In this document: in pieces, positions 47-37,921 of the stretch
Layout: each line of letters starts with the position of its first letter
Numbering within the stretch: position 1 is the first letter of the stretch
NCBI GenBank assembly: GCA_038060895.1
Contig: JBBTCT010000022.1
Span: 96,001-160,000 of the forward strand
DNA length: 64,000 nt
Direction: 5' to 3'
Source of the DNA: Planctomycetota bacterium
Lineage (GTDB): Bacteria > Planctomycetota > MHYJ01 > WSZJ01
Translations under genes and position numbers: made by a program
The notes under the pieces: generated by a model
The model's input: only the letters and a program-made list of their open reading frames with translations
What the model was told of the DNA's origin: nothing
Database searches by the model: none

Positions 47-385
47 CTACCACCCCATCGCGGCCCGCGCCGATGGCGAGAGGAGTTCATGCGACCACGG
101 GGGCTCCCAGACCAGCGACACCGTGCAGGAGCGGACGCCGGGGACCCCCATCTCTACCGCCCGTTGTGCGCCGCTCACCATGGCCGGCCCGACGGGGCAA
201 CCCATGCTGGTGAGCGTCATCTTGATCTCCACGTCCTTGTCCAGAACAGTGACCTCGTAGACGAGCCCGAGTTCGACGATGTCCAGGCCGAGCTCAGGGT
301 CGAGGATGCCGTGAAGAGCCTCGATGACCTTCTTCATCGTGGGGACATCGTCCCGGCCGGGAATGGAGTGGTCGATTTGTCTCAT
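47..385 (-). CDS. DUF59/SufT/PaaD-like metal-sulfur cluster assembly factor
   Basis: DPELGLDIVELGLVY, MTLTSMGCP and VWEPPW motifs are typical of DUF59. Divergent from the redox operon. Confidence 0.9.
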   Translation of the reverse strand: MRQIDHSIPGRDDVPTMKKVIEALHGILDPELGLDIVELGLVYEVTVLDKDVEIKMTLTSMGCPVGPAMVSGAQRAVEMGVPGVRSCTVSLVWEPPWSHELLSPSARAAMGW

Positions 386-756: not shown

Positions 757-3687
757 ATGAACCGTGATCGCCTGTTCGTTGTCTTCGCGATCCTCTCTCT
801 CGGTGTCGGCATCACCGTCTCCCTGGCGCGAGCCGGAAGAGCGGCCGATTCCAGCGTGCTTCCCACCGCGAATTCCATCGCCGACTCCTGGAAACGGCGC
901 TCGCTTCGCCCCGTCCCGAACCCCGATCCGAACGCGAAACCGCAGCCTCACCGCTGCCGTCCGTACCGCGTCGCCGCTTCGGCGGACGGCGAGCGAGCCT
1001 GGGTCACGCTCTCCGGAAAAGAGATCTGGCCCGGCTCGGAGGTCGCTGTCCTCGATGTCCCCGGGCGGCGCGAGGTCGGCCGCGTCGCCGTCGGTTCCTA
1101 CCCCTACGCCATCCGGATGCACCCCGCCGGCAAGTGGGTCGTCGTCACCAACCGTTACTCCAACTTCCTCTCCGTCATCGACGCCGTCACGAACAAGGTT
1201 ACTTCGGAGATTCCGGTCCCGTTCTATTGCGAAGAGCTTGAATTCTCCCCCGACGGGCGCCTCGCCTGCCTCTCGAATTTCTGGAACAACCAGGTCCTGG
1301 TCGTCGACCTGCAGGAAATGGACGGTTGCCTGAAGGGACGGATGCGTGAGCTGGGCTTCGACCGCGCGGCGTTCCGGGGCGAAGAGGCCGCCGGGACCAT
1401 CAGAGAGTCGGTGTGCGAGGCGTGCGGCTGGCGGGGCGAGCCGGCTTTGAAATGTGCCCGCTGCGGCGCGCCGGCGCCGCGGATCGTGGAGCGGCCGCGC
1501 GCCGTTTCGCGGCCGGGCGGCGTTTACTCCGCGCTGCGCGCCGGCTGCGGGACGGCGGGTTGCCACCTGTACGGGCTCGGCGGCTTCACGGCCGGTCCGG
1601 ACCCCGCGGAGACTTTCCGCAGCGCTGTGGCCCACGCGTTCCCTGACGCGCCCGAGGCCAGCCCGCTCCTCCGCTGCACAACCTCGCTCCGCGACGGCGG
1701 CTGGGCCGATGGCATCGACGGCCGGCACCACCCGGGCGGTGTCGCCTTCGCCGACCCCGCTCACAACCCCGACTACGCGCTCATCCGCGATTGGATCGCC
1801 TCGGGAACCGAGGGCCCCGGGATCTCCGTCGGCGACAAGCCCCGCGACATGGCCTTCAGCGCGGACGGACGCTTCCTCTTCGTCGCCAACACCGGCTCGC
1901 TCGACGTCTCCGTGATCGACCTCTCGACCCTCCGCGAGACCCGCCGCATCTTCACCCGCTCCCCCGTCAACGACATCGCGTGGGCCGGAGACCGCCTCGT
2001 TTTCGCCACCCTCGGCGTCGGTTCAGGGCACCCCAAGGCGCGCAACCCGGCGCGCGAGTCCCTCGATCGGACAGGCGCGGAGACGGAATTCTCGCTGAAG
2101 CGCGACTTCGCGACAGGGAAGCCTCTTCCGCTCGAGAACCAGGACCCCCTGGGCCCCTACGACGATGTGGACGGGACCGCGCAGGAGAAGTTCCGGGACA
2201 TCACGAACGACGTCGTGCTGCTCGACCCGTCGGTGAGCGACGTCGCGGCATACGCGGCGACGGACGCGTGGGTGAGGTACACGTCGGACACTTTCGAGGC
2301 CCTGCCGGGAGACAAGAGAGGCGACGTGCCTCCGGAGCTGATGAAGGTTGCCGGGGCGTTCCCTGAGCAGATCGCGACCGCGGCGGACCGGGTTTACGTG
2401 ACGATGTCCGGCACGTTCCAGGTGCAGGAGTGGTCGCGCGAAGGAAACCGGCTGGTCCCGGGGCGCGTGTTCGATACGGGGTTCAAGCCTTCGGGGATCG
2501 CCGCCGCGGGGCGCACCCTGGTCGTCGCCAACCACCTGCAGGAAAGCGTGACGTTCATCGACCTCGAATCCGGCGCGGCCTCCTCGCTTTCGCTGTCGCA
2601 AATCCTCGAGCCGTTCCCGGCAACGGATTTCGAGCGCGGCGAGTTCTTCGTCCAGACGTCGATCTTCTCCGTCGACCAGGACCAGAGCTGCGTCCACTGC
2701 CACTTCCGCGACACCTCCGACGGCAAGAAATGGTCCGTGAGCCAGACCATGGGCCAGAGCCGCGACGGAAATGAGCGCGCCGGCGGCAGCCGCGAGGTCC
2801 CGGATATGCGCGGGCTCTTCCATGACGTCCCCTTTTTCGTCGAGGGAACGCTCACCATGGACGAGCCGCTCACCATGATCATGGAGCAGAACCCGCTCGT
2901 GGATTTCCAGGGCAGGACGCCCGTCGGCGACTTCACGGGAATCGTGGCGACGCCCGACGAAGAGAAGAAGTACTCGAAGTCGGCGGACGCGATCGTGGTG
3001 GCGACGGGGAAGTGGTCGTCGCCGGATGTGAAGCTGGCAGATCTAATGAAGCGCCGGGAGATCCACTTTGCGAGGATCTCGGAGAAGTACTGGGGGAGCG
3101 CGTATGGTCTTCGCGACTGCCAGAAGTTCGTGGGGGCGTATCAGGGGGAAGAGCCGAGGCTGCTGGCGAACCCGGAGGCCTCCGAAGATCCGATGGTCGT
3201 TCAGGGGAAGGCGATCTTCGAGGACGCACGGGTCGGGTGCGCCCAGTGCCACCCCGCGCCGGCGTTCACGGACAAGAAGCACCCGAACAACATGAACCGG
3301 TCTTTCCCGCCGCTTGTGACGCCGGCGCCGCGGGACAACGTGCACACGCTGGTGAGCGCGGACCGCCTCGACGCGATCAACGGGTTCGTGCGGGCCTGGG
3401 ACGCGGAGGACAAGGGGCGCGTCGAAGAGCGTGAAGGGTTCTTCGTGGCGCCGTCCTTGCGCGGCCTCTGGGCGCGCCCGCCGCGGCTGCTGCACCACGG
3501 CCGGGCGGTCAGCCTGCGGGAAGTGGTTTGCACGCCCGGCCACGCCGCCCTCAAGCCGCTTCCCTACGGCCGCCACGAACAGGGGCTCAACGAACGCGAC
3601 GGCGTGCCGGACACGCACGGCGTGACGTCGCACCTCATGGTCTGGGAGATCGAATGCCTGGTTCGCTACCTGCGCTCCATCGAATAG
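757..3687 (+). CDS. Secreted YncE/YVTN beta-propeller fused to a cytochrome c and a di-heme cytochrome c peroxidase-like domain
   Basis: N-terminal signal/TM; YVTN-like repeats (VGSYPYAI..VVTNRYSNFLSVID, VGDKPRDMAFSADGRFLFVANTGS); CGTAGCH, CVHCH and CAQCH; CCP-like APSLRGLW..LLHHG. Confidence 0.8.
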   Translation: MNRDRLFVVFAILSLGVGITVSLARAGRAADSSVLPTANSIADSWKRRSLRPVPNPDPNAKPQPHRCRPYRVAASADGERAWVTLSGKEIWPGSEVAVLDVPGRREVGRVAVGSYPYAIRMHPAGKWVVVTNRYSNFLSVIDAVTNKVTSEIPVPFYCEELEFSPDGRLACLSNFWNNQVLVVDLQEMDGCLKGRMRELGFDRAAFRGEEAAGTIRESVCEACGWRGEPALKCARCGAPAPRIVERPRAVSRPGGVYSALRAGCGTAGCHLYGLGGFTAGPDPAETFRSAVAHAFPDAPEASPLLRCTTSLRDGGWADGIDGRHHPGGVAFADPAHNPDYALIRDWIASGTEGPGISVGDKPRDMAFSADGRFLFVANTGSLDVSVIDLSTLRETRRIFTRSPVNDIAWAGDRLVFATLGVGSGHPKARNPARESLDRTGAETEFSLKRDFATGKPLPLENQDPLGPYDDVDGTAQEKFRDITNDVVLLDPSVSDVAAYAATDAWVRYTSDTFEALPGDKRGDVPPELMKVAGAFPEQIATAADRVYVTMSGTFQVQEWSREGNRLVPGRVFDTGFKPSGIAAAGRTLVVANHLQESVTFIDLESGAASSLSLSQILEPFPATDFERGEFFVQTSIFSVDQDQSCVHCHFRDTSDGKKWSVSQTMGQSRDGNERAGGSREVPDMRGLFHDVPFFVEGTLTMDEPLTMIMEQNPLVDFQGRTPVGDFTGIVATPDEEKKYSKSADAIVVATGKWSSPDVKLADLMKRREIHFARISEKYWGSAYGLRDCQKFVGAYQGEEPRLLANPEASEDPMVVQGKAIFEDARVGCAQCHPAPAFTDKKHPNNMNRSFPPLVTPAPRDNVHTLVSADRLDAINGFVRAWDAEDKGRVEEREGFFVAPSLRGLWARPPRLLHHGRAVSLREVVCTPGHAALKPLPYGRHEQGLNERDGVPDTHGVTSHLMVWEIECLVRYLRSIE

Positions 3688-4724
3688 CCCTCGCCACCGC
3701 CGCCGCGTTCGCGCTGGCCGGCCTCGGCCTGTGGGCGCGTCGCGACGCGTTGCCCGCCGCCGCCCCGTCGTCCGCCGCTTCCGGCGGCACCGTCGTCCGC
3801 GCGACGCGGCCGCTCATGGGAAGCGTCTTTGAAATCGCGGTCTGGGCGCCTGCGGGGAAAGAGCCGGAGGCGGCTGAGGCGGCGCGGGCGGGGCTGGACC
3901 TGGTTGCGGCGCTCGAGGAGAAGATCAGCGAGTGGAAACCGTCGAGCGAGATTTCCGCCGTGAACGCGGCGGCGGGGGGCGAGCCTGTGAAGGTCGGGCC
4001 CGAGACGCGCGAGCTCGTCGGCGCGATGGTCGAGTGGTCGCGGCGGACGGGTGGAGCGTTCGACGTCACGGGCGGGCCTCTGTTCCGGCGGTGGGAGAAG
4101 GCGCGCAAGGAGAAGGACCTTCCGTCGGGCGCGGAGGTCGACGCGCTTCGGGCCCTCGTCGGATGGGAGAAGATCACGCTGGGCGCCGGAGCGGTCCGCC
4201 TCGCGAAGCCTGGAATGGCGATCGGTACGGGAGCGATCGGCAAGGGCTGGGCCGCCGACAAGGCGGGGGCGATGCTCGAGGAGCGCGGATTCCCCGACTA
4301 CATCGTGGACGCGGGAGGCGACCTGCGCGTCGGTGGCTCGCGCGGCGGCGAGCCGTGGACGGTCGCCGTGAAAGAGCCGCGGCGCGAGGGCTTTCTCGCG
4401 ACGATCGCCGCCGCGCCCGGCGGCATCGCGACATCCGGCGATTACGAGCGGTTCTGGCTCGTGGACGGCGTGCGCTACTCCCACATCCTCGACCTCCGAA
4501 CCGGCTGGCCGGCGCGCGGCCTCGCAAGCGTCACCATCATCGCGCGGGACGGCACTTCGGCCGACGCCCTTGCCACGGCCGTATTCGCGATGGGGCCGGA
4601 GAAGGGGCTCGAGTTTGCGAATGGTCTCAAGGGGGTGGAAGCGATGCTGGTGCGCGACGACGGAGGGGAGATCTTCACGCGCGGCCTTCGGCGGAAAGGC
4701 GACCGGCTGGAGGTGATCCGGTGA
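3654..4724 (+). CDS. apbE: FAD:protein FMN transferase
   Basis: LMGS, SEISAVN, TGGAFDVT, GAIGKGWAAD, DAGGD, ATSGDYERF, YSHILD, ADALATA. ATG at 3654 follows GGGAG. Confidence 0.93.
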   Translation: MPGSLPALHRIALATAAAFALAGLGLWARRDALPAAAPSSAASGGTVVRATRPLMGSVFEIAVWAPAGKEPEAAEAARAGLDLVAALEEKISEWKPSSEISAVNAAAGGEPVKVGPETRELVGAMVEWSRRTGGAFDVTGGPLFRRWEKARKEKDLPSGAEVDALRALVGWEKITLGAGAVRLAKPGMAIGTGAIGKGWAADKAGAMLEERGFPDYIVDAGGDLRVGGSRGGEPWTVAVKEPRREGFLATIAAAPGGIATSGDYERFWLVDGVRYSHILDLRTGWPARGLASVTIIARDGTSADALATAVFAMGPEKGLEFANGLKGVEAMLVRDDGGEIFTRGLRRKGDRLEVIR

Positions 4725-7700
4725 ACGGCGCGCAGGTGCGGGGGGCGATGGTGCTGGCGGCGGCTTCCGCGGCCGCGGCCATCATAGGATGGAAGGCGTT
4801 CGCGATCCGGGAACGACCTGCGCCGGCGCGGCAGGCCGGCGATTCCTTCGCCGTCTTCTGTCGCGAAGTCGTCCCGGTGCTGGACCGCCGCTGCGGCGGC
4901 TGTCACGGTGTTCCCGGCGACGTTTACGATGCCATCGCCGCCGAGCCGCTGAACCGCACGCTCCTGCGCTGGCCCGTCGACGAATCCGGCCGCATCGCGA
5001 CGGCCGGCCAGCGCGTCGAAGCGTTCCGCCGACTCACGCAGACCTCCGCGGGCGGAGGGAAGCAGTTCGCGCCGCTCGACCGCCGCGGGCCAGCCCTCGC
5101 AAGCCAGATTCTCCGGGCGCCGCTCGCTGAATCGCTCGGCGGCTACGTCCACGCCGAGGTGTTCGCCTCCGTCGCCGACCCGGACTTCGTCGCGCTGGCG
5201 GCGTGGGCCAGCCTGGAGATCTCCGCGAGTCCCGAGCCCGCCGCGACGCTCTCGCCCGGCGCCGAGACCTTCTTCGCCGAAAGGGTCGTCCCCATCCTCG
5301 AGCGCAAGACCTGCTTCGGCTCCAACTGCCACGGAAAGCTGGCCTTCAACGACCTCAAGCTCGACCCCGGCATCCCCGCCCTCCGGGAACGCTTCACCCC
5401 CGCTCTCCACCGCGCCAACCGCCGCGCGATGCTCGGCGAGGTCACCCGCCTGGTAAACCTGTCCGGCGACGTCGAGCAGTCGAAGCAGCTCAAGAAGAGC
5501 ATTCCCGTCGAGCAGGGCGGGATCGTGCACAAGGGCGGGAACAACTTCCTCGAGAAAGGCGACCCGGACTACGCCGTGGTGAAGGAATGGCTGGAGCGGG
5601 AACGGGCCGAAGCGCGGAAGGCGACCGGTGCAGCGCTTGGAGACCTGCGCGGGATCGTGTTCGTGCGCCGGCCGCGGGCAACGCCGGAGCGGTACTTCGA
5701 GCCGCTCGTTTGGCTGCCGGGAGCGGACGTGATCCTGCTTCGGGACGGCCGCGAGACGAACCTCACGGCGGCTCTTCACCCGTCCGCCCCCGCGGACATC
5801 CGTGCGGCGGAGGTCAGCTACGACGCGCGGAGGATCTCGTTCGCGATGCGCAGGAGCGAGGAAGAGCCGTTCAACGTCTGGGAGATCGAGCTCGAATCCG
5901 GCGCGGCGCGGCAGATCACGTTCTCGACGGACCCTGCGGTTCATTTCGTCGATCCGGTCTACGTCCCCGACCCCGAGGACGCCGACGGCCTGCGGCTCGA
6001 TCTCGCGGACCTCGTCGTGCTCTCGAACTTCTCGGGCGAATTCTGCGAAGTGAGCCCCGACGGGGTCCTCGGCGAGGCCGAAGGCGGGACGGCGGACGCC
6101 ATCGAGGACGCTGAGCTGCGCGAGAAGGCAGGAACGTTCGACGGACGGCGCCTGCGAGTCCTTCGCGGTGCAAACACCGGCGAAGCGCGGACCATCTCCC
6201 GCCAGGAGCCAGGCCGGCTCCAGCTGGACCGGCCGTTCCCGTCGCCCTGCGACTCCACGACCCACTACGTGATCGACGCGCCGGTAAGAGTGGCGCCGAA
6301 GTTCGATCTGTACCGCATGAAACTGGCGGCCCCGGGCGGCGAGCGCGCGGCATTCCAGGCGACGCTGCGGCGGATGACCTGGTCGCCGTCGCAGGCGCGG
6401 CGGCCATCGCTGCGGTCGAGCGGGGAAGTGATGGCGACGTTCCTGCGCGCCGGCTGGCAGGAAGGGCGACCGTTCTTCAACGGCGCGATCTTCCGCACGC
6501 ACATCGACGGCTCGAATTTTCACACTCACGGCGGCAACCGCTCCGGCCTGCCGATCCACGCAGACGGGCGCGAGGCCGCGGACGGGCTGGAGGTCCGGAT
6601 CGGGCGCGACGCGGACTCGTGGTGGGGCGGCGTGCCGATCCTTGTTGACCACCAGTTCGGCCCTCACATCGAGGACCGCAACCCCCTCGACGACCTCGAC
6701 CACCCGTGGCGCAATGGCCCCCCGAAGTCCGCGATGACGCGCTTCGCGTCCGCCTGGATCCCGCTCGACGAAACAGCCTCATGCCGCGGGTTGTCCCCGG
6801 GAGGCGCGTGGCACGACCTCTTCCCCATGCCCGACGGCTCGATCCTCGCGTCGTTCGCGCCGGGGCCCGTCGACCTCGACGACCCGTCGGCGGCTCCGGA
6901 CTTCGACATTGTGCGGCTCGTGCCCGACCCGGCGTTTCAGTCCGCGGACGGATTCGCGGGCGGAAAATTCCGGCGCGAAACGCTCGCCGGCGGGCCTTCC
7001 GCCGAGCTGTGGCCGCGCCCCGTCGCGCCGCACCTCAAGGAACCCCTGTCGAAAACCATCAAGATCGACGAGGACCTCTTCGGCCCCGCACCCCGCGACC
7101 GCGGCCTCGCCCGCTACCCCGCAGGCGCTGCATCCGTGCTCCAGGTGTTCGATCTGCCGCTCCTGGACGCGTTCTTCACCCAGTCCACGCCGGTCGGTGT
7201 CCGCCACATCGCGTCCGATGTCTGCCCCTCCTGCGGCGACGCGACCCCCGACATCGACCAGGTCCATCTCGCCCGCATCGTCGGCCTCCAGGCGCGCCCT
7301 GACCCCGCCGCGCAGCCCCGTCGCTTCCTCATCGCCGAAGTTCCCCTCGCCGAAGACGGCTCCATCCAGGCCGCCATCCCCGCCGGCATCGCGTTCGACA
7401 TCGAGTCGGTCAACGCGCGCGGCATGGCGCTGCGCTCCCCGAACCGCTGGCTCTACACACTCCCCGGCGAACGCCACACCCTCTCCATCCCGCGCCCGCT
7501 CTTCGCCCAGACCTGCGGCGGCTGCCACGGCGGCCTCACCGGCGCGCCCGCCGACATCCTCCGCCGCCCCGACATCATCACCTCGGCATCGCGGACACAG
7601 GCGATCTGGGATGTCGAGAAGCGCCGCAAGCTCCTGCCCTCCAACTGGGACGGCGGGCGCGCGCCGGCGCCGGTCGAAGTGAGCTTCGAGAAGAGCGTCC

Positions 7701-7978
7701 GCCCGATCCTCGAGCGCCGCTGCCTGGAGTGCCACGAGGGGAGCGGAGCGGTGTCGGGAGTGAATCTTGCGGGCGAAGCGGCCTACGACACCCTTTTGCG
7801 CTTTATAGATCTCGACGACCGCCGCGCGATCGTCTCGCGACTCGCCGAGCGGCTCGAGGGACGCGAACTGCACGCCCCGGGTGTAGCGCCCGCGGCACCA
7901 CACCCGGACGGCGCACCGCTTCCCGACGAAGATCTCCGCGCTATTTACCGCTGGATCGACCTGGGGGCGGAGCGATGA
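4721..7978 (+). CDS. Multiheme cytochrome c with a hydrazine synthase alpha (HzsA)-like propeller and middle domain
   Basis: GTG overlaps the apbE stop; CGGCH, CFGSNCH, CGGCH, CLECH; VSYDARRISFAMR propeller motif; EVPLAEDGS..IPAG..NARGMA..W..PGE..CGGCH resembles the HZS-alpha middle domain. Confidence 0.75.
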   Translation: MNGAQVRGAMVLAAASAAAAIIGWKAFAIRERPAPARQAGDSFAVFCREVVPVLDRRCGGCHGVPGDVYDAIAAEPLNRTLLRWPVDESGRIATAGQRVEAFRRLTQTSAGGGKQFAPLDRRGPALASQILRAPLAESLGGYVHAEVFASVADPDFVALAAWASLEISASPEPAATLSPGAETFFAERVVPILERKTCFGSNCHGKLAFNDLKLDPGIPALRERFTPALHRANRRAMLGEVTRLVNLSGDVEQSKQLKKSIPVEQGGIVHKGGNNFLEKGDPDYAVVKEWLERERAEARKATGAALGDLRGIVFVRRPRATPERYFEPLVWLPGADVILLRDGRETNLTAALHPSAPADIRAAEVSYDARRISFAMRRSEEEPFNVWEIELESGAARQITFSTDPAVHFVDPVYVPDPEDADGLRLDLADLVVLSNFSGEFCEVSPDGVLGEAEGGTADAIEDAELREKAGTFDGRRLRVLRGANTGEARTISRQEPGRLQLDRPFPSPCDSTTHYVIDAPVRVAPKFDLYRMKLAAPGGERAAFQATLRRMTWSPSQARRPSLRSSGEVMATFLRAGWQEGRPFFNGAIFRTHIDGSNFHTHGGNRSGLPIHADGREAADGLEVRIGRDADSWWGGVPILVDHQFGPHIEDRNPLDDLDHPWRNGPPKSAMTRFASAWIPLDETASCRGLSPGGAWHDLFPMPDGSILASFAPGPVDLDDPSAAPDFDIVRLVPDPAFQSADGFAGGKFRRETLAGGPSAELWPRPVAPHLKEPLSKTIKIDEDLFGPAPRDRGLARYPAGAASVLQVFDLPLLDAFFTQSTPVGVRHIASDVCPSCGDATPDIDQVHLARIVGLQARPDPAAQPRRFLIAEVPLAEDGSIQAAIPAGIAFDIESVNARGMALRSPNRWLYTLPGERHTLSIPRPLFAQTCGGCHGGLTGAPADILRRPDIITSASRTQAIWDVEKRRKLLPSNWDGGRAPAPVEVSFEKSVRPILERRCLECHEGSGAVSGVNLAGEAAYDTLLRFIDLDDRRAIVSRLAERLEGRELHAPGVAPAAPHPDGAPLPDEDLRAIYRWIDLGAER

Positions 7979-8424
7979 AGGGCGCCTCGATCCTCGGCAT
8001 TCTCCTGCTTGTCGTGGCGCTCTCGGCGGCGGCGTGGCTGGCGCATGAAGGGGTGTCGGGAGTTTCCTGCGCGAAGGCGGGTGACTGCGCGAGCTGCCAC
8101 AAAGGGTCGCCGCCGACGACGCATACACCGGCTTTCGTCGAAGAAGGGCACGGACCGGCGGCGCTTCAGAATCAGGCGTCCTGCCTCGGCTGTCACAAGC
8201 GCGAGTCGTGCGACGAGTGCCACGCAAAGGAGCGGCCGAAGTGGCACACGAGCGGGTTTCGGGCGCCGGGGAGGGGGCGGGAGGAGAGGGAGGAGCACAT
8301 CCGGATTTCGGCGGCGCACCGGGAGTCGTGCGGCGAGTGCCATGCGCGGCGGTTCGCGTCGCAGTGCGCGGAGTGCCACCGGCCGGACGAGGCGTGGCTG
8401 AAGACGGCCCAGGAGGCGCGATGA
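7975..8424 (+). CDS. Membrane-anchored or periplasmic pentaheme cytochrome c
   Basis: Hydrophobic N-terminus followed by CASCH, CLGCH, CDECH, CGECH and CAECH in 149 aa. Confidence 0.88.
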   Translation: MKGASILGILLLVVALSAAAWLAHEGVSGVSCAKAGDCASCHKGSPPTTHTPAFVEEGHGPAALQNQASCLGCHKRESCDECHAKERPKWHTSGFRAPGRGREEREEHIRISAAHRESCGECHARRFASQCAECHRPDEAWLKTAQEAR

Positions 8425-9542
8425 AGGTCCCGGCGCTGAAGCAGACGGTGCGCGAGGCGATCCGGGCGCTGGAGCCGGCGCCGGCAGTCCGCGTCCGGAC
8501 GGCCGGGCTGCTCGCGCGAGTGGTGCCTGGAGACCGCGTGGAAGCGGGGCAGGTGATCGCGGAGTCGCCGGAAGGGGAGGGGTTCGCGCGGCGTCGGCAC
8601 TCGCCGTACGACGGCGTCGTGGTTTCGGCGAAGCGCCCGGGAGAAATCCGGATCGAGGGCCGGCCGCGCGTCCTTCCTTCGGCGCCGCACCGGGAGTTGG
8701 CGTCGCTCTCGCCCGAAGCGGTGGTCGCCGCCGTGCGGGACGCCGGCATCGAGGGAATGGGAGGCGGGATGTTCCCGACGTATGTGAAGCTCGCGCCCGG
8801 CCGGCCGGTCGAGTGCGTGATCGTGAATGCCTGCGAGTCGGAGCCGTACCTCGCGTGCGACGCGCGCGTGATGGCCGAATTCCGCGACGACGTCGAGTGC
8901 GGGATGCGCCTCGCCATGCGCGCCGTCGGCGCCGCGCGCGGCGTGATCGTCCACGACGACGGCGGCTACCCGGGCGGCTACGAACGCTTCCTCGTCCGCC
9001 AGGTCCTCGGCCGCGATGTCCCACCGGGCGGCCGCCCGGCAGACGCGGGCGCGATCGTGATCAACGTGCAGACGGCCCGCGCGATCCACCACGCCGTCTG
9101 CCTGGAGCGGCCTCTGCTGGACCGCGTCGTGACCGTCGATGGCGGCGCCGTGGCGCGCCCCGGGAATTTCACGGTGTCGCTCGGCACCGAGTTCGGCCAC
9201 ATCCTCGCCTGCGCTTCGGCCGACCTCGCGCTGGCGGCGGTCCTTCTCGCAGGCGGTCCGATGATGGGCGTCGAGTCGCTGCCCGACGCCGTCGTCGAGC
9301 CGGGGACCGGAGGCGTCCTCGCGCTCACCCGCGAGGAGATCCGCCGCCCCACCGACAACCCGTGCATCCGCTGCGGCGACTGCCTCGAAGCGTGCCCCGT
9401 GGGCCTGAGCGCGCGTCACCTCATCCTTCGCCCCACGGCCGCCCTCTCGCGCTGCATGGACTGCGGCATGTGCCAGTACGTCTGCCCCGCCGACCGCTCC
9501 CTCGTCGCCCTTCTCCGCCGGGCCAAGGCGACATTGCGATGA
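8421..9542 (+). CDS. rnfC: Compact RnfC-like electron transport subunit
   Basis: AGIEGMGGGMFPTYVKL, NACESEPYL, YPGGYE, GGPMMG, and two 4Fe-4S motifs CIRCGDCLEACP and CMDCGMCQYVCP. Confidence 0.85.
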   Translation: MKVPALKQTVREAIRALEPAPAVRVRTAGLLARVVPGDRVEAGQVIAESPEGEGFARRRHSPYDGVVVSAKRPGEIRIEGRPRVLPSAPHRELASLSPEAVVAAVRDAGIEGMGGGMFPTYVKLAPGRPVECVIVNACESEPYLACDARVMAEFRDDVECGMRLAMRAVGAARGVIVHDDGGYPGGYERFLVRQVLGRDVPPGGRPADAGAIVINVQTARAIHHAVCLERPLLDRVVTVDGGAVARPGNFTVSLGTEFGHILACASADLALAAVLLAGGPMMGVESLPDAVVEPGTGGVLALTREEIRRPTDNPCIRCGDCLEACPVGLSARHLILRPTAALSRCMDCGMCQYVCPADRSLVALLRRAKATLR

Positions 9543-9997
9543 GCGAAGCGCCCCCGGCGCGCGCCCGCGTGGCGACCGCCGTCCTTCTCGCCGCCGCCGC
9601 GGCCGTCGCGTTCGCGCTGCGCCCTGCTGACCCGGACCGCGCGCTCGCCGAGCGGCTCATCGGCCCCGCCGCGCGCGTCCCTGGCGGCGGCCCGCCCGCA
9701 TTTCACAACGGCCGCAAAGCGGTCCTCTTCTTCGAACGCCCCGGCGTCCAGGGGCTCATCCGCGGCGCCGTCGTCCTCGAGGGAGATGCCGTCGCCGACG
9801 TCCTTGTCCTCACCAGCACCGAGGGCCACGACGGCCGCGTTCTCCAGTCCCCCGGGTTCCTCGCTTCGTTCCGCGGCCGGCCCGCACGCCCCCCCGTCGT
9901 CGTGGACTCCGTCACCGGCGCGAGCGTCTCCTCCCGCCTCCTCATCGACGCCGTCAACGACCGCCTCCGCTGGTGGTCCACCGAGGCCCCCCGATGA
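9539..9997 (+). CDS. RnfG-like FMN-binding protein
   Basis: N-terminal TM helix, GVQGLI, EG, and the flavinylation motif VDSVTGASVSS. Confidence 0.75.
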   Translation: MSEAPPARARVATAVLLAAAAAVAFALRPADPDRALAERLIGPAARVPGGGPPAFHNGRKAVLFFERPGVQGLIRGAVVLEGDAVADVLVLTSTEGHDGRVLQSPGFLASFRGRPARPPVVVDSVTGASVSSRLLIDAVNDRLRWWSTEAPR

Positions 9998-10392
9998 AAC
10001 TCCGCTTCCCCGCCGGGTGGATCCTTGCCGGGCTCGTGCCTGCGCTCTGGGAAGCGCCGCCGGTCGCGTCGCTGGCCTGGGCCGCCGCGCTCGGGCTTGG
10101 CGCGGCGCTCGCCGCCGGCCGGCCGTCGCGGTGGGTTGCGATCGCGTGGATCGCCGCGGCCGCCGTCCCTGGCGTCCCGCTCGCTCCCATCGCCGCCGCG
10201 GGCGCTCTTCTCGCCGGCGGTCGCGCCCACCTCGGCGCGGCCGCTCTCGGCGCTGCCCTCGGCGCCGCCGCGCAGTTCGCTCCCTTCGTCGTCCCTGTCC
10301 ATGCGGGCGGAGCCCTTCTGCTCGCGGCGGCCGCCGCCCTCGCCCTTCTGCCGTCAAACCCCGAACCGCCCGAAGAGGAGTCCGCCCGATGA
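9994..10392 (+). CDS. Small membrane protein, degenerate RnfE-like
   Basis: Ala/Leu-rich TM segments; lies between the rnfG-like and rnfA-like genes; PVHAGGALLL weakly recalls the RnfE C-terminus; no Cys. Confidence 0.45.
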   Translation: MKLRFPAGWILAGLVPALWEAPPVASLAWAAALGLGAALAAGRPSRWVAIAWIAAAAVPGVPLAPIAAAGALLAGGRAHLGAAALGAALGAAAQFAPFVVPVHAGGALLLAAAAALALLPSNPEPPEEESAR

Positions 10393-10772
10393 AGCCCTGG
10401 GACGCGGTCTTCCTCGCCGCCGCCGCCGGTCTTTTCCTCCAGCGCCCCCGCGCCTGGTGGCTGGCCGCAGCCGCTCCACTCCTCGCTCTCGCTGCGCAGC
10501 CGCTCGGCACGTTCGCCGGCCCGGCCGCCGCGCTGGCCGCCGTCCTCGTCGCGCCGCGCTTCGCCCCTGCCGCCCTCCTCCTCGCCGCCGGGCACTACAC
10601 CGGCTGGGCCGACGCGGCGCGCGCTTCGGCCGTCTGGCTCGCCGTGAGCGCGCTCCTGGCCTCGATGGAAGAGCGTTTTGAAGAAGTTTCGCCGCGCCTC
10701 CGCGGCGCGCCGATCCGGCTGTTCGCGACCGGCGTGCTCTACTACGCGCTTCTCCCGGTGGCCTACCTGTGA
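10389..10772 (+). CDS. Small membrane protein, degenerate RnfA-like
   Basis: C-terminal ASMEERFEEVSPRLRGAPIRLFATG matches the RnfA 'RERL..VP..RG.PI.L..AG' signature; no Cys. Confidence 0.6.
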   Translation: MKPWDAVFLAAAAGLFLQRPRAWWLAAAAPLLALAAQPLGTFAGPAAALAAVLVAPRFAPAALLLAAGHYTGWADAARASAVWLAVSALLASMEERFEEVSPRLRGAPIRLFATGVLYYALLPVAYL

Positions 10773-11683
10773 GCCCCGGCCCCCTGGTCCACAGCGGTCG
10801 CACGACCCGTGTCTTGATGGCGCAGGTGCTGATCGCACTCGCGCCCGCCCTGATCGCTGCCGTCGTGCGCGGCGGCGTAACGGCGGCCGCCTCGCTCGCC
10901 GCCGCCCTGTCCGTCGCGTGGGGAGTCCAGTGCTTCTTCCTCAGGCGCGCCGCGTTCCACGAAAGCGCTCTCGTCACCGCCGCCATTTTCGCGCTCACTC
11001 TCCCCGCGACGGCGCCGTGGTGGCTCTCCGCGCTCGGCGCCGCGATCGCGGTCTCCCTCGGGAAACACCTCGGCGGCGGCGCTGGCAACTCCCTCTTCAA
11101 TTCGGCCGCCCTCGCGCGCGCCGTCCTCATGGGCCTCGCTCCCGGCCTCCTTTTCGCCCCGCGCTGGCCCGCCGCCGACGGAATCACCGCCGCAAGCCCG
11201 CTCGCAAAAGAAGTCGATTCCGTGGCAACGCCGCTCCTCGACCTCCTCCTTGGCCAACACCCCGGCTCCCTCGCCGAAGCCGCCCCCCTGGCCGTCCTCG
11301 CCGGCGGCCTCTTCCTCGTCGCCGTCCGCGCCATCGAGGGCCGCGTTCCCCTCGTCTACTTCGCGACCGTCTCTCTCTTCGCCCTCTTCCTCCCCGCAGG
11401 CGACCGCATCGCCGGCCACGCGCCGTGGCTCGCCCACAATGCCCTCCTTCACATCGCTTCCGGCGGCGTGCTCCTCACCGGATTCTTCATGCTCACCGAC
11501 CCCGTCACCGCGCCCTTCACGCCGCGCGGCCGCATGCTCTTCGCCGCCCTCGCCGGCGCCGCGACCATGCTCGCGCGCTTCTACACGCCCTACCCCGACG
11601 CCGCCGTCCTCGCCGTCCTCCTCGCCAACGCATGCGTTCCCGCCATCGACGCGCGGACGATTCCGCGGGAAGCGCTTTCCTGA
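10769..11683 (+). CDS. rnfD: RnfD/NqrB-family membrane subunit
   Basis: MAQVLIALAP, SALVT, KHLGGGAGNSLFNSA, DGITAASPL, GSLAE, FFMLTDPVTAP, AVLLAN. Confidence 0.88.
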   Translation: MSPGPLVHSGRTTRVLMAQVLIALAPALIAAVVRGGVTAAASLAAALSVAWGVQCFFLRRAAFHESALVTAAIFALTLPATAPWWLSALGAAIAVSLGKHLGGGAGNSLFNSAALARAVLMGLAPGLLFAPRWPAADGITAASPLAKEVDSVATPLLDLLLGQHPGSLAEAAPLAVLAGGLFLVAVRAIEGRVPLVYFATVSLFALFLPAGDRIAGHAPWLAHNALLHIASGGVLLTGFFMLTDPVTAPFTPRGRMLFAALAGAATMLARFYTPYPDAAVLAVLLANACVPAIDARTIPREALS

Positions 11684-11759: not shown

Positions 11760-13688
11760 CTAGCGTGCGGCGCGCACGAGCCATTCGCGGAGGAGGCCGC
11801 GAAGCACTGCGGGATCGGCCTTCCAGGCGGCGACCCAGCGTGCAAGCTCCGCGGCCGCGGGGGCGGAGCCCAGAAGGGCGCGGTGCTGGCGTTCGAACCA
11901 GAGGGACGCGAACGCGTCCCGTCTGAGGAGTTCGGGTCCGAGTCCGCGGGCCGGGGGCGGGGTCGAATCGGACGGAACGCGCTCCCCGGCGAGGCGGGCG
12001 AGCAGCGTGCACGCGGCGACGGCGGAATCGGGGAAGCGGCGATTGATGTTCGAGTCGGCGAGCCAGAGCTTCCAGGTTTCCAGGAGATTCCCTTCTCCGT
12101 TGGCCCATCTCGCGGATTCCACGGCCAGGTCGAAACCGTCCGGCGCGAAGGGGCCCATGAGATCGAGGCAGGCGAGGTCGCGGGCGAGGAGGACGCGCCA
12201 GAAATCAGGATCGGCGAGGACATCGTTGGCGAGATCCTCGGGCGAAAGTGTGGCAAGCCGTGCGGCGGCAGAAGCGTCGGCCTCGAGGCCGAAGACACGG
12301 GCGACGAGGGTCTTGATGCGGGCGACGCGGGCGGCGGAGGGCGCCACGGGCGAGACGCCGGCAGTTGCCTTCGCGCGGAGCCGGACGCGCGAAGGAAGGC
12401 TCCGGCCGCGCGACGGGTCGATGACGGCCAGCTCGAGCACCCACGTTCCGGCGACATCCGCCTTCAGGCTCGCCTCCCGCCCGTCGGCATTGGCGAGCTT
12501 CGCCTCCGAGCCGGCGGGCGCGAGGACGATTCTCCATTCCCACTTCAGCCTCCGCCCTCCCGGCTCGCGGCTTCGTTCGCCGTCGAATTTCGCGACGCGG
12601 CCGGGCTCGATCTCCTGGTCGGGGCCGGCGTCGGCCAGGGGCCTGACCTCCGAGGGCTCCGCGCCCGCGGCGAACGCCACGAACGCCGTGTACTCCAGCG
12701 AGCCTCTCCGGAAGTTGTCGCCGCCTCCGTGTTCCGCGCCGCCGTCCTCGAGCGCCAGCGGCTTGAGGACGAGCGGCGAACGGTCGGGGGCGTCGCGGCG
12801 CGCAAAGCGCACGACGACGTCGAAGTTTTTCTTTCGCGAGATCGCCCCGTGGCCGGATTTCCCCGGAAGCGTCAGGACAAAACCGCCCACGGGAAGCCCG
12901 GGCTTCGCGTGGCACGACATGCAACTTGCGTCCAGAATCGGCAGGATTTTCTCGGAGAAAGTTGCCTGACTCAGTTCCTTCATTTCCGTTGCCCCCGGAG
13001 CGGGCAGCTCGGGGCGCGGCGGAAGCGGCGTCTTCGTCGCGACGTCGTACGGCGACTCGGAAGGCGGCTGCTTCACGGCGGGAGGTTTTTTCGACGGGGG
13101 CAAGTCGCGCGCGGGAGGCGGGTCGGGAACCTGTGGTTTCGGGGGAGGAGGCGGTTTTGCGGTCGCGGGACTGCCCTCGGAAGGCTCCGGCGCCTTTGCC
13201 GCTTCTTCCGGTGCTTGTGAGGAGTCGTGTTTCGAGGCGATCGGCGTGAAATCCTGGGTGAGTGCCCCGGGCGATTCGGGCCGCGCGGCCGGGAGGTTGA
13301 ATTCGCCGAGAGCGAGAACCAGGATTGCGGCGAATGCGACGAATGCGCCCGTCAGCCCCAGAACGACGGGAAGAAGTCCGCGCGGCGCACGCGGAAAAAT
13401 CAGCTCGTCCGTCGGCGCGTCTTCCGTCGCAACAGCGGGCGCCGTGCCGGCGTCAGGCCCGCGCCCCACGGGAGAACATCGCGGGCAGAGATCCGCTCCC
13501 GCCGCGATCTCCTCGCCGCAGCCGCACTCGAGCGAGATCACCTCTGCCCCCGCCACATCCGGCACCACCACCGACGTTCCGCAACCCGGGCAGCGGGACC
13601 GGTGGCCGGATTTGCGAAGGGGAGCGAGCAGCCGGTGACCGCAGGCGCACCGGAATTTGACCTGCAGATTCTGCTCGTCCTTCGACAT
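11760..13688 (-). CDS. Membrane protein with Zn-ribbon, TM, Pro-rich linker, monoheme cytochrome c and PKD-like domain
   Basis: CACGH..CPGCG and CGCG..CPRC; one TM; FSEKILPILDASCMSCH; ADAGPDQ..FDGERS PKD motif. Confidence 0.65.
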   Translation of the reverse strand: MSKDEQNLQVKFRCACGHRLLAPLRKSGHRSRCPGCGTSVVVPDVAGAEVISLECGCGEEIAAGADLCPRCSPVGRGPDAGTAPAVATEDAPTDELIFPRAPRGLLPVVLGLTGAFVAFAAILVLALGEFNLPAARPESPGALTQDFTPIASKHDSSQAPEEAAKAPEPSEGSPATAKPPPPPKPQVPDPPPARDLPPSKKPPAVKQPPSESPYDVATKTPLPPRPELPAPGATEMKELSQATFSEKILPILDASCMSCHAKPGLPVGGFVLTLPGKSGHGAISRKKNFDVVVRFARRDAPDRSPLVLKPLALEDGGAEHGGGDNFRRGSLEYTAFVAFAAGAEPSEVRPLADAGPDQEIEPGRVAKFDGERSREPGGRRLKWEWRIVLAPAGSEAKLANADGREASLKADVAGTWVLELAVIDPSRGRSLPSRVRLRAKATAGVSPVAPSAARVARIKTLVARVFGLEADASAAARLATLSPEDLANDVLADPDFWRVLLARDLACLDLMGPFAPDGFDLAVESARWANGEGNLLETWKLWLADSNINRRFPDSAVAACTLLARLAGERVPSDSTPPPARGLGPELLRRDAFASLWFERQHRALLGSAPAAAELARWVAAWKADPAVLRGLLREWLVRAAR

Positions 13689-13717
13689 CGCCACCTCTTG
13701 GCTCCGGATTGCCGGGC

Positions 13718-14971
13718 CTACGCCTTCTTCAGGAACCCGAGCGCCGGCGCCTGCGGCTTCCAGTCGGGGAAGAACTTCTCCATCTTCGTGAACCCGAGGA
13801 AACCGCTCAGCACCTCCGTGAACGGAAGGCGGAAGTCCGTGTGCACCGGCATGTCCCGCTCCTCGTACAGGCTCTTCGGTTCCAGCCCCGTCCACTTTCC
13901 GAAAATCTTCCCTCCGTCCACCTGCCCGCCGAGCGCCAGCATGATCCCGCCGTGGCCGTGGTCGGTGCCGTTGTTCCCGTTCTCCGCCACCGTGCGGCCG
14001 AATTCGGACATCGTCAGGACGAGCACGTCCTTCATGCGCGCCTCGCCGAGGTCCTCCGCGAACGCGGCCAGCGTGTCCGAGACGTTCTTGAGCATGTCCG
14101 CCATCTGCCCGTCTTCCACGCCTTCCTTCGCGTGGTGGTCCCACCCGTTGTAGTCCGCCGCCGCGACTTCCAGCCCGCACCCCGCCTTGATGACCTGCGC
14201 GATCCCCTGGAATTGCCGCCCCAGCGTCGTCGCCGGGTACTTCACGCCGCCGGCGCCGTCCGCCTTCGCGAGAATGTCCTGCAGGAAGCGCAATTTCCGG
14301 ATCGTTTCCTGCCCCGCACCCAGGATCTTGTCGGCGGGATCGTCGGACCGCTTCTCCATCCCGCCCCCCTTCCCGTACTGCCCCTCGAATTCGTCCATCG
14401 CCTGCATCGCGCGGTCCTCGGGAACGGCCAGCACAGGGAATTGGCCGCGAAGCGCTCGGGGCAGAAGCGGCTGCGCCGCGAGGGCGCGCAACTCGACTTC
14501 CTTCCGTTTCCCTTCGTTCGTCGCGGTCAGCCAGCGATTGAGCCAGCCTTCCGTAATCGTGCGGACGCCCGGCGCGGCGTACTCCATGAAGTCCTGCGCG
14601 TCGAAGTGGCTGCGCGTCGGGTGAGGGGAGCCGACGTTCAGGATCGGCGCGAACATTCCCTTCTTGTAGAGAGCGTGCAGCCCCTTCATCGACGGATGCA
14701 GCCCGAACCCGCCGCCGAGGTCGAGCGCGCCGCCGTCGGCGCCGGGGGGCGGGACTGCGATCGTCGGGCGGATCTTGCGGTACGTCGCGTCCGTGTACGG
14801 CGCGACGAGACTGAGGCTGTCGGCGCCGCCCCTCATGTAAAGCACGACGACGGTCTTCACGGCCGCGCCCTTCTCGTCGGCGAGGGCGCTGAGGCCGAAG
14901 CGGCCCGAGGCGATCGCGCCGAAGACCGCTCCGGAGGCGCGGAGAAAATCACGGCGGTTGAAATCGGTCAT
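13718..14971 (-). CDS. DUF1501 domain protein (Tat-exported)
   Basis: NRRDFL Tat motif, RGGADSL, RSHFDAQ, GWDHH, SEFGRT, NGTDHG. Confidence 0.9.
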   Translation of the reverse strand: MTDFNRRDFLRASGAVFGAIASGRFGLSALADEKGAAVKTVVVLYMRGGADSLSLVAPYTDATYRKIRPTIAVPPPGADGGALDLGGGFGLHPSMKGLHALYKKGMFAPILNVGSPHPTRSHFDAQDFMEYAAPGVRTITEGWLNRWLTATNEGKRKEVELRALAAQPLLPRALRGQFPVLAVPEDRAMQAMDEFEGQYGKGGGMEKRSDDPADKILGAGQETIRKLRFLQDILAKADGAGGVKYPATTLGRQFQGIAQVIKAGCGLEVAAADYNGWDHHAKEGVEDGQMADMLKNVSDTLAAFAEDLGEARMKDVLVLTMSEFGRTVAENGNNGTDHGHGGIMLALGGQVDGGKIFGKWTGLEPKSLYEERDMPVHTDFRLPFTEVLSGFLGFTKMEKFFPDWKPQAPALGFLKKA

Positions 14972-16629: not shown

Positions 16630-16926
16630 CGTAGGGGTCTCCGATGCGGCTCCCGGGCCGCGCGGGACGGCCTCGAGGGGACGCTGTCCCCTTGCCGGAC
16701 CCGGCGCGCCGGTCTCCGCAGAATTCAACACGCGCGAAGGGGCCCGGTTGCCGGGAATCCCTCCCGCCGGCCGAATCGGCGGAACTACTTAATGGCCTTA
16801 ATGTTCCGCTTTCACGGCGCGCAGTTCAAGCGGGATTGCGTCCGGAATCTGCGGAATCCCCGGAAAGGGGGACCGCCTGTTCCGCCGCACAAGCCGACGT
16901 CCTGCGGGCGATGGCGGGGCGCCTGC

Positions 16927-19716: not shown

Positions 19717-20030
19717 GAAGTGGTATCCGGAGAAGCGAGGTGGGAACCGGAGAGTATCGCACTCGGCGGCCTAAGGGATCGCCCATAGGGTGGCGTCGAG
19801 AATTCGCGCTTGGATGAGATAACTCGCCGTGGCCCTTTCAGCCCGCAACCTCGCCGTCTCAAACAATGTTCCCGCATGACGCGCACGCACCTGCGCCACG
19901 TCCCGCACCGATCCAGAAAGATCCGTCACTGTCAGCCACGCTCGCGACATGCCCATTGCTTACTTCGACGGTCTCTGACTCCAACCGATAACTGCCAACA
20001 AATGCGTGGGAAGCCCACCAGTCGCTCAGC

Positions 20031-25439: not shown

Positions 25440-25475
25440 GATGCGGTTACTTTAGAAGGTGGGGGAAGAAAGGAC

Positions 25476-33675: not shown

Positions 33676-33829
33676 GCAGAAGACGACACGGACCAGCATA
33701 TCCGGCGGGGACGGCCCCGAAAAGTGAAGGTCAGATTCCCCGGTTTTAATTGCCCGAATCCCCGGCCCGGCCTAGACTTACAGGCCCGAATTTTCGAATC
33801 CCCGACGACCTGCAACTGGAGAAATCGCC

Positions 33830-35659: not shown

Positions 35660-35660
35660 G

Positions 35661-36751: not shown

Positions 36752-36756
36752 GACAA

Positions 36757-37377: not shown

Positions 37378-37426
37378 GATCGGGTTCCACTGAACGATTC
37401 CCGAATGAGACTGGAGACAGGACGCC

Positions 37427-37921
37427 ATGGGCGGCTACACGATCCGGGAAGGGTGCATCGGCTGCACGGTCTGCGCGAAGCGCTGCCCGACCGAGGCGAT
37501 CACGGGCTCGACGAAGAAAATGCACTACATCGACCCCGAGCTGTGCATCGACTGCGGGGTGTGCGGGTCGTACTGCCCCGTGGACTGCATCTACGACCAG
37601 TTCGGCCAGCAGACGTTCATGATCAAGCAGGCCAAGCTCCGGCCGCTCGCCATCGTGCTCGAGGAAAACTGCACCGGCTGCGAAGCGTGCGTGAACATCT
37701 GTCCCTTCGACTGCCTTTCCATGCGCAAGGGCGGGGAAGAGGGCCACTTCTTTACCGTGTCCTGGCTTTCCAAGCCGAAGGCCTGCGTGGCCTGCAAGCT
37801 CTGCGAAGTGGCGTGCGGTGACAAGGAAGCGATCAAAGTCGTGTGGCCCGACAAGACCGGAGCCCTGGATCCTTACGGCGAGCCGCTGGTCAGTTTCAAC
37901 CTCCCGGCTTCGCTGAAATAG
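37427..37921 (+). CDS. Polyferredoxin with 4 x [4Fe-4S] motifs
   Basis: CIGCTVCAKRCP, CIDCGVCGSYCP, CTGCEACVNICP, CVACKLCEVAC. Confidence 0.9.
   Translation: MGGYTIREGCIGCTVCAKRCPTEAITGSTKKMHYIDPELCIDCGVCGSYCPVDCIYDQFGQQTFMIKQAKLRPLAIVLEENCTGCEACVNICPFDCLSMRKGGEEGHFFTVSWLSKPKACVACKLCEVACGDKEAIKVVWPDKTGALDPYGEPLVSFNLPASLK

Follow-up and report, generated by a model that had tools for sequence, protein, structure and literature searches.

A nine-gene operon that joins a hydrazine-synthase-like multihaem enzyme to part of an Rnf electron-transfer complex was found on the plus strand, at positions 757-11683, of a 64,000-nt stretch of DNA from a Planctomycetota bacterium (this whole stretch is called the window below), by means of open reading frame (ORF) calls, translations and family searches. 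Its genes, numbered G1 to G9 in operon order (Table 1), encode homologues of subunits alpha, beta and gamma of hydrazine synthase (HZS), an ApbE-type transferase of flavin mononucleotide (FMN), a pentahaem cytochrome c and a cut-down Rnf module. The reading that we favour, to which we give a probability of about 60%, is that electrons pass from NADH through RnfC, the FMN of RnfD, the FMN of G6 and the pentahaem cytochrome to the HZS-like complex, where they would feed a reductive reaction in the periplasm. The wiring of the operon parts is well supported by comparative evidence and an outward direction of electron flow is probable. The operon represents a real and conserved system, made of two known kinds of parts and apparently undescribed.

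The operon and its hydrazine-synthase-like pair

The nine genes follow one another without gaps: G1 and G2 overlap by 34 bp and the remaining seven junctions are 4-bp overlaps of the ATGA or GTGA type, an arrangement already described in an earlier reading made from the letters alone (the sequence-only reading) and borne out by sequence and coordinates. That reading had also counted 12 haem-c-binding motifs, a number that stood, being made up of ten CxxCH and two CxxxxCH motifs (two CxxCH and one CxxxxCH in G1, three CxxCH and one CxxxxCH in G3, and five CxxCH in G4), with those of G1 and G3 invariant or nearly so among 20-21 homologues. A promoter and terminator scan did not exceed chance, with 0 promoters and with 2 terminator-like sites where 5.6 were expected. 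Raw ORF lists were full of spurious frames, because the G+C content of the window is about 70%.

G3 starts with an N-terminal membrane helix, followed by a region of about 300 aa that carries two extra haems (C58xxCH and C198xxxxCH) and by a body resembling HZS alpha, which comprises a propeller, a middle domain with C932xxCH and a C-terminal domain bearing C1001xxCH. All the residues of these motifs (C58/C61/H62, C198/C203/H204, C932/C935/H936 and C1001/C1004/H1005) were invariant in the 20 sequences aligned. When a profile built from G3 and 19 homologues was compared to all PDB sequences, the sole match obtained was HZS alpha (5c2v_A, E 5.7e-25), in a collinear alignment of five stretches that took in the C-terminal haem motif. 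The same chain was the top Foldseek match (E 3.1e-25, TMt 0.59) of an AlphaFold2 (AF2) model of G3 with a predicted local distance difference test score (pLDDT) of 83.9, the second rank being held by TolB propellers at 2e-9 (of the order of 1e-9). Both the sequence and the fold thus confirmed the earlier HzsA-like call for G3, at an identity to HZS alpha of about 16% and with the Pfam HZS_alpha model scoring 23.4 bits, below its cut-off of 26.6. Database relatives of G3 amounted to 79, most of them unnamed; the names given were 'hypothetical protein', and P0043 and P0048 bore the generic 'mono/diheme cytochrome c family protein'. One relative, P0051 (1444 aa), is a G3 homologue fused to an ApbE domain, a fusion that ties the flavin transferase to the HZS-alpha-like protein.

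G1 is likewise anchored by an N-terminal membrane helix and consists of a beta-propeller with an inserted CxxxxCH haem (C264-H270) and a C-terminal di-haem domain (C645xxCH and C828xxCH). Among 21 sequences, C269/H270, C645/C648/H649 and C828/C831/H832 were invariant and C264 nearly so. The profile of the 21 homologues matched HZS beta (5c2v_B, E 1.2e-23) and HZS gamma (5c2v_C, E 1.3e-8), and the AF2 model of G1 had 5c2v_B as its top Foldseek match (E 1.2e-16, TMt 0.70). Searched alone, the C-terminal domain gave a single significant match, again HZS gamma (5c2v_C, E 1.9e-10), the nearest peroxidase lying at E 0.27, and in the alignment to HZS gamma both haem motifs and a C-terminal D-x-HG-x-TSHL motif were matched. 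The sequence-only reading had taken G1 for a propeller/peroxidase fusion; its propeller and its di-haem domain are both there, and the nearest solved relative of the latter is HZS gamma, not a peroxidase. The propeller of G1 also holds a zinc-ribbon-like CxxC-x(n)-CxxC insertion at residues 220-240 (about 1414-1476), which is present in part of the family only.

Homologues of alpha, beta and gamma are therefore encoded together, and the top fold matches of both proteins are HZS chains. As stated in the accessible text of Hagglund et al. 2025 (PMC12758564), haem alpha-I of HZS is ligated by Tyr591, four residues past the CxxCH histidine, and haem gamma-I has a third covalent link via Cys165. 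The alpha-I motif of G3 reads C932-G-G-C-H936-G-G-L-T940 and the family consensus is CxGCHGxLTG, without a tyrosine (a reading of the motif, not a structural superposition, in a loop with pLDDT below 50). Regarding the third link, across G1 and its homologues (21 sequences) the C-terminal domain showed no invariant cysteine beyond the four of the two CxxCH motifs, the stretch of 5c2v_C that matches the third-link cysteine being left unaligned by HMMER. Scores on the NCBIfam models all fell below the cut-offs (22.3 bits against 800 for hydrazine_alpha, 56.6 against 560 for hydrazine_beta, 23.5 against 625 for hydrazine_gamma and 43.4 against 1250 for hydrazine_BC). Judged by their sequences, G3 and G1 are an HZS-like pair of an alpha and a fused beta-gamma protein, not hydrazine synthase itself.

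Table 1. Operon genes and other features of the window, with the occurrence of the operon genes in type-A loci (found/loci with room for the gene on the contig)
Feature	Position	Strand	Length	Type-A loci
G1, HZS beta-gamma fusion homologue	757..3687	+	976 aa	24/24
G2, ApbE (FAD:protein FMN transferase)	3654..4724	+	356 aa	18/25
G3, HZS-alpha homologue	4721..7978	+	1085 aa	
G4, pentahaem cytochrome c	7975..8424	+	149 aa	29/30
G5, RnfC	8421..9542	+	373 aa	26/27
G6, RnfG/NqrC-like FMN-binding protein	9539..9997	+	152 aa	22/25
G7, hydrophobic membrane protein, no family match	9994..10392	+	132 aa	12/23
G8, Cys-less RnfA/NqrE remnant	10389..10772	+	127 aa	15/20
G9, RnfD/NqrB-family membrane subunit	10769..11683	+	304 aa	19/20
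DUF59 gene	47..385	-		
Convergent ORF with weak PKD-domain matches	11760..14180	-	806 aa	
DUF1800 gene	14983..16731	-		
Ser/Thr protein kinase with TPR repeats	16927..19770	-	~945 aa	
Ser/Thr protein kinase with TPR repeats	22614..25451	-	~945 aa	
Polyferredoxin	37409..37921		170 aa	

The cut-down Rnf module and its carriers

Three genes of the second half of the operon encode subunits of the Rnf type with their cofactor sites in place. G5 scored 260 bits on the rnfC model TIGR01945 (cut-off 245.95) and carries an NADH/FMN-binding Complex1_51K domain (PF01512, E 1.6e-30), an SLBB domain and two 4Fe-4S motifs. G6 matched PF04205 (FMN_bind) with 22.8 bits against a cut-off of 22 and shows an N-terminal anchor followed by the flavinylation motif TGAS, [S/T]GA[S/T] being kept in 22 of the 23 aligned homologues. 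G9 has PF03116 as its sole Pfam domain (E 1.6e-73), with 188 bits on TIGR01946 (below the cut-off of 207), and a flavinylation-type site, TAAS; the pattern [S/T]-x-A-[S/T] with its last S/T was kept in all 37 aligned homologues. G2 is an ApbE (PF02424, E 4.1e-81), and hydrophobic N-terminal anchors can be read in both G2 and G6, so that a flavin transferase is encoded beside two proteins with [S/T]GA[S/T]-type sites, as in ApbE-dependent extracytosolic flavinylation. G4 is a membrane-anchored or secreted cytochrome c whose five CxxCH motifs recur in 36 of 46 homologues, including 16 of the 17 from type-B loci (see below). The pentahaem cytochrome, the dedicated flavin transferase and the rnfC, rnfD and RnfG-like genes proposed from the letters alone thus all held up.

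The two remaining genes, G7 and G8, gave no Pfam or NCBIfam match. A profile of G8 and its relatives (13 homologues) matched RnfA 9eri_A at E 1.8e-4 over RnfA residues 82-183, RnfA 7zc6_A at 0.072 and NqrE at 0.62, which corresponds to the C-terminal two-thirds of RnfA/NqrE and includes a common motif, R..E..vP..LRG.PI.L. Where RnfA has the cysteine that holds its 2Fe-2S cluster, G8 has another residue, and the alignment shows no conserved cysteine. The label 'A-like' for G8 therefore stands in the sense of a remote RnfA/NqrE remnant and falls with regard to the cluster. A complex model placed G8 against RnfD and G7 with a score of 0.74 (best control 0.29), a pLDDT of the partners of at least 81 and at least 93% of the contacts common between runs, a result that may partly reflect likeness to Rnf, because Rnf complexes have already been solved. 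G7 is hydrophobic and cysteine-free. It had been called 'E-like', a label that we dropped: a PDB profile search returned no match below E 5, hhalign gave a probability of 1% for a relationship with G8, and an Atlas search found nothing at 0.8 or above.

The host genome (G000) assembly has 5.4 Mb and is 86.5% complete, and G9 is the only RnfD/NqrB homologue found in it. PF02508, the family of RnfA/E and NqrD/E, had no match in this assembly at E <= 0.01. No RnfB is encoded in the operon, and the only genome match over the rnfB cut-off was a polyferredoxin of the window (Table 1) that adjoins 2-oxoacid:ferredoxin oxidoreductase genes and matches only positions 109-165 of the 190-position model, by our reading its 4Fe-4S ferredoxin part (region 33776-37921). 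RnfB, RnfA and RnfE are thus absent from the assembled genome. Since there is neither an RnfB nor a PF02508-class RnfA/E, and G8 has no cluster cysteine, the ferredoxin branch and the known ion-pumping loop are missing, and the G5-G9 module is the C-D-G flavin leg of Rnf without its ferredoxin branch, not a true Rnf complex. The same assembly has one HAO-family ORF (530 aa, PF13447 83 bits; G000:C24:36534-37100, L071:1210-2802, - strand), which reached 72.5 bits with the hydrazine_HDH model (cut-off 900), so that no hydrazine dehydrogenase partner was found in the 86.5% of the genome covered.

Conservation of the cluster in two forms

A scan with one genome per species returned 67 related loci, every one of them from a metagenome-assembled genome (MAG), and these fell into two types. 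Type A comprises 31 loci with a G3 identity of at least 49%, and type B comprises 36 loci with 29-41% identity. Type-A loci, whose MAGs are labelled Planctomycetota, Akkermansiaceae, Myxococcota, Gammaproteobacteria, Bacteroidota and Acidobacteria, keep the gene order of the window, and the occurrence of each gene was counted by tblastn among those loci with room for it on the contig (Table 1). The misses of G6, G7 and G8 were mostly divergent copies invisible to tblastn, their gaps being occupied by hydrophobic ORFs of the right size; in L024, L025 and L028 the gap between rnfC and rnfD fits G6 and G8 only. The recurrence of one gene order across phyla makes the operon layout far more than a product of chance. 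The sequence-only reading would have been refuted had the cytochrome genes and rnf-like genes never been syntenic elsewhere, and the 31 type-A loci demonstrate that this is not the case. In a separate sample of the phylum, a search of 301 Planctomycetota genomes with G3 gave matches at E <= 1e-20 in 3, all of the genus of the window, namely the host genome itself and two of the three other genomes of that genus; this shows rarity among the genomes searched, not absence. This scattered distribution, together with identities of 50-60% between phyla, suggests horizontal transfer.

Type-B loci present a different order, consisting of G3, G1, a protein with an FGE-sulfatase domain, ApbE (often fused to a second FGE domain), a small cytochrome and an RnfD-like gene. 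The latter was present in 17 loci and lacking from 5 with room for it, the contigs of the other 14 stopping too soon to show it. The cytochrome lies directly upstream of the RnfD-like gene, and RnfC is missing from the type-B loci. In its place, a NuoF-like gene (Complex1_51K plus NADH_4Fe-4S) occurs in 15, and a NuoG-like gene with 2Fe-2S/4Fe-4S motifs in 16, of the 17 loci that have an RnfD-like gene; both are located directly downstream of RnfD or fused to it. Two NADH-dehydrogenase-type modules therefore sit on the same RnfD-plus-cytochrome core, and this is our best argument for a coupling of the enzyme to the NAD(H) pool of the cytoplasm.

In type-B clusters the stretch between G1 and the cytochrome encodes one or two periplasmic domains of the FGE-sulfatase family (PF03781), of which one is joined to ApbE (L029, L038-L040, L042-L045, L047, L048, L050, L052, L054-L056, L058, L060, L062 and L065; an example is L055:16397-19176), and none was seen in type-A clusters. 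Upstream of the cluster, 13 loci (for instance L022:3129-5780) encode a hybrid sensor histidine kinase whose sensor domain (PF21623) is periplasmic, and 5 type-B loci (for instance L057:5248-5847) a LuxR-type regulator; neither was found within 12 kb upstream of the window (L070). A recurrent upstream 'family' in 8 loci was discarded, as it had no Pfam match and may consist of spurious ORFs.

The divergent DUF59 gene, pointed out earlier as an Fe-S maturation gene, does exist (PF01883, E 3e-20); its homologue was detected by tblastn in just 1 of the 67 related loci, which rules it out as a conserved member of the system. The convergent 806-aa ORF downstream shows weak PKD-domain matches and a CxxCH motif, its C-terminal region being of unknown family, and tblastn gave no copy of it in related loci. 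A DUF1800 gene stands a few kb downstream of the operon and another directly after a type-B cluster (L055:21428-23080). DUF1800 is a family abundant in Planctomycetota, and this recurrence may be a coincidence. Further on, the window holds two paralogous genes for Ser/Thr protein kinases with TPR repeats.

Electron flow, alternative readings and known systems

On the reading that we favour, the nine genes would encode one membrane-bound machine, an assembly that we infer from synteny. Its periplasmic part would be formed by G3 and G1, with seven haem-c sites together, and by the pentahaem G4. The membrane and cytoplasmic part would comprise RnfC, with an NADH site, FMN and two 4Fe-4S clusters, and RnfD with a covalent FMN; G6 would hold a second covalent FMN on the periplasmic side, the ApbE of the operon would attach both flavins, and G8 and G7 may act as small scaffold proteins. 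Electrons would then travel from NADH to RnfC, to the FMN of RnfD, to the FMN of G6, to the haems of G4 and finally to those of G1 and G3. At such low potential they would feed a reduction at G1's gamma-I-like haem, possibly followed, as in HZS, by a second step at the alpha-I-like haem in G3. Our first guess for a substrate would be a small N-oxide such as NO, nitrite or hydroxylamine, the main alternative being chemistry dependent on peroxide or O2. The accessible text of PMC12174285 describes subunits C, D and G of Rnf, and NqrB and NqrC of Nqr, as consecutive flavin carriers. We favour the outward direction on three grounds: in HZS the gamma haem is a site of electron consumption (PMC12758564, accessible text); an inward flow without an energy-coupling branch would need a donor of exceptionally low potential; and a dedicated supply at the level of NADH would suit a reaction that quinol cannot drive. 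Wiring of NAD(P)H via RnfC, D and G and the pentahaem protein had been put forward in the sequence-only reading, and the NADH module of the type-B loci makes it the best-supported one, direction and chemistry being inferences.

Several observations weigh against this reading or narrow it. ApbE was not found in 7 of the 25 type-A loci with room for it. In L026, a Pirellulales MAG, the cluster ends after G6, with no G7, G8 or rnfD in the 8 kb that follow; a 1226-aa ORF stands in place of these three genes (L026:3690-11623), which is a real variant or a misassembly. To this should be added the five divergent type-B loci with room and no RnfD-like gene. None of the four type-B loci inspected has a separate FMN_bind gene, so that the G6 step is not universal, and in the operon itself the FMN_bind match of G6 is marginal. 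The AF2 model of G1 has a mean pLDDT of 65, and its di-haem domain is poorly modelled (pLDDT 25-45). Because the residues of HZS hydrazine chemistry are not kept, the analogy with HZS says little on the substrate, and because canonical forward Rnf runs from G to D to C to NAD+, the parts alone do not fix the direction. As for expression, parts of G1, apbE, G3, G6 and rnfD are covered by contigs that come from two RNA libraries of a single aquifer sample and are at least 99% alike to the window, and the G4/rnfC and rnfC/G6 junctions are spanned by them; these are Logan contigs, which carry no strand, level or transcript ends and are uninformative about the uncovered parts of the operon. They are weak evidence for operon expression and may be DNA carry-over, since the DNA run of the same study covers the region similarly.

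The main alternative keeps the outward conduit and makes the enzyme a peroxidase or MauG-type oxidant handler instead of a nitrogen-oxide enzyme, which would either detoxify peroxide with NADH or use peroxide/O2 plus electrons to modify a protein or a small molecule. The C-terminal domain of G1 belongs to the superfamily of di-haem peroxidases, MauG and MbnH, as seen from 17.9 bits on PF03150 (below the gathering threshold of 25.6), a weak match to TIGR04039 (MbnH) and CCP-like motifs readable in the alignment. Many carriers are labelled with groups such as Maribacter, Saprospiraceae and Akkermansiaceae, which are mostly aerobes, and the FGE-sulfatase family, whose domains the type-B clusters add on the periplasmic side, includes enzymes that use O2. 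Against this, HZS gamma is a far closer relative of the domain than any solved peroxidase, as described above, and a plain peroxidase has no known need of an HZS-alpha-like partner. Periplasmic peroxidases generally draw their electrons from ordinary cytochromes or quinol and need no conduit at the level of NADH. On balance we regard an oxidant handler as unlikely.

The same machine could also run backwards, with the HZS-like complex oxidising a periplasmic substrate of very low potential and G4, G6, RnfD and RnfC passing the electrons on to make NADH. This is exactly how the forward leg of canonical Rnf operates (G to D to C to NAD+; PMC12174285, accessible text), and the NuoF/NuoG-like module of type B is reversible in principle. 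Without an energy-coupling branch, however, the donor would have to lie well below the NAD+/NADH potential, inward transfer would oppose the membrane potential, few periplasmic substrates would qualify, and HZS itself takes up electrons at its gamma haem (PMC12758564, accessible text). Reversed flow seems rather improbable to us.

It could be argued that the pair is a genuine hydrazine synthase and its host an unrecognised anammox bacterium, given that both types of HZS subunit are co-located and that a cold-seep paper took divergent HzsA genes from ten phyla to indicate a potential for anammox (PMC11828985, whose accessible text leaves Rnf unmentioned). The NCBIfam scores, which for alpha (22.3, cut-off 800) and for beta-gamma (43.4, cut-off 1250) stay far under the threshold, T940 in place of the alpha-I tyrosine, the lack of a third-link cysteine in G1 and the low score of the sole HAO-family ORF on the hydrazine dehydrogenase model all contradict this, and Hagglund et al. 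reject such a reading for HZS-like homologues generally (PMC12758564, accessible text). This very improbable explanation is refuted as far as sequence can go. Least credible of all is that the cytochrome and rnf-like genes are mere neighbours without joint function, for which only the exceptions (L026 and the five divergent loci) speak and which is contradicted by the synteny counts, by overlapping translational junctions through all nine genes, by a partnership that survives rearrangement and a change of NADH module, and by the G3-ApbE fusion in P0051.

Compared with known systems, the favoured NADH-driven machine resembles each of them in part. The anammox HZS of Kuenenia stuttgartiensis (PDB 5C2V) is, like the present pair, an extracytoplasmic multihaem complex, and both share the two alpha and the two gamma haem motifs and a collinear alpha protein. 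The present pair differs from it in its low identity, in three extra haems (two N-terminal ones in G3 and another in G1), in the absence of the alpha-I tyrosine and of the third cysteine link, in being fed by an NADH-linked half-Rnf and in having hosts that are not anammox bacteria. According to Hagglund et al. 2025 (PMC12758564), Scalindua too has a beta-gamma fusion, and HZS-like alpha genes co-located with fused beta-gamma genes form clades I-IV in non-anammox bacteria. As in our family, key HZS residues are not conserved in those clades and their function is unknown; in the accessible text, the neighbours of clades I-III are FG-GAP/CRTAC1 and ABC transporter genes, clade IV has no fixed neighbourhood, 'Rnf' occurs in the reference list only, and 'ApbE', 'NADH' and 'flavin' do not occur. 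Homologues of clades I-III keep the peroxidase tryptophan, at the position of which our family appears to carry a Phe or Tyr, by motif reading and not by structural alignment.

On the Rnf side, the operon has in common with RnfABCDGE an RnfC, an RnfD and an RnfG-type FMN protein with flavinylation sites, an ApbE and an RnfA-derived small subunit, and it differs in that RnfB and PF02508-class RnfA/E were not found in the host assembly and in the missing 2Fe-2S cysteine of G8. One-way systems leading from NAD(P)H to the outside have been proposed for partial Nqr/Rnf-like complexes (Meheust et al. 2021, 10.1101/2021.01.07.425746; 2024 mSystems, PMC11334425; accessible text of both). There too a subunit of the NqrB/RnfD type would pass cytoplasmic NAD(P)H electrons to an extracytosolic flavoprotein; it is fused to an NqrF-type NAD-binding domain (PF00175), has no RnfD flavinylation threonine and comes mainly from Actinobacteria and from the Candidate Phyla Radiation. 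In the present system the input is RnfC or, in type B, a NuoF/NuoG-like module, RnfD retains its site, a multihaem enzyme would serve as acceptor, and G9 carries PF03116 without a PF00175 fusion. In Methanosarcina acetivorans, a multihaem cytochrome c gene (MmcA) stands beside rnf and its product is thought to take electrons out (PMC12174285, accessible text); that Rnf differs in being a complete six-subunit ion-pumping complex, in an archaeon and without an HZS-like enzyme. We found no paper on the set of HZS-like pair, half-Rnf and ApbE, literature searches aimed at it having turned up ordinary rnf operons or anammox genomics instead, and the supplementary tables of PMC12758564 and PMC11828985 may list members. 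The sequence-only reading knew of no described system with this gene set, and our searches agree with it for the combination; HZS-like alpha/beta-gamma pairs outside anammox bacteria, which it did not note, are already in print (PMC12758564, accessible text).

HZS has long been treated as an enzyme without relatives, and the distant homologues of recent papers were given neither a function nor partners. The homologues described here come with a fixed and dedicated electron supply, and the question of their function is therefore narrowed: whatever the HZS-like pair does appears to need electrons at the level of NADH carried across the membrane, and this supply has been assembled in two forms from different NADH modules. 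The operon also represents a new way of cutting Rnf down to a one-way conduit, in which the C-D-G leg is kept and the A subunit has become a clusterless scaffold. A practical consequence is that hzsA-like genes of this kind should not be counted as anammox potential in metagenome surveys. More speculatively, and we consider it doubtful at present, the system may stand for a widespread class of periplasmic enzymes, not yet cultured, that would be driven by NADH and act on nitrogen oxides, and in which the gamma-like haem would reduce NO or nitrite to the level of hydroxylamine with half-Rnf electrons and the alpha-like haem would then carry out a further reduction or a condensation forming an N-N or N-O bond. 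If this were true, heterotrophs and sulfur bacteria from at least six phyla would share a reaction step so far assigned only to anammox bacteria, and the nitrogen cycle would gain a route.

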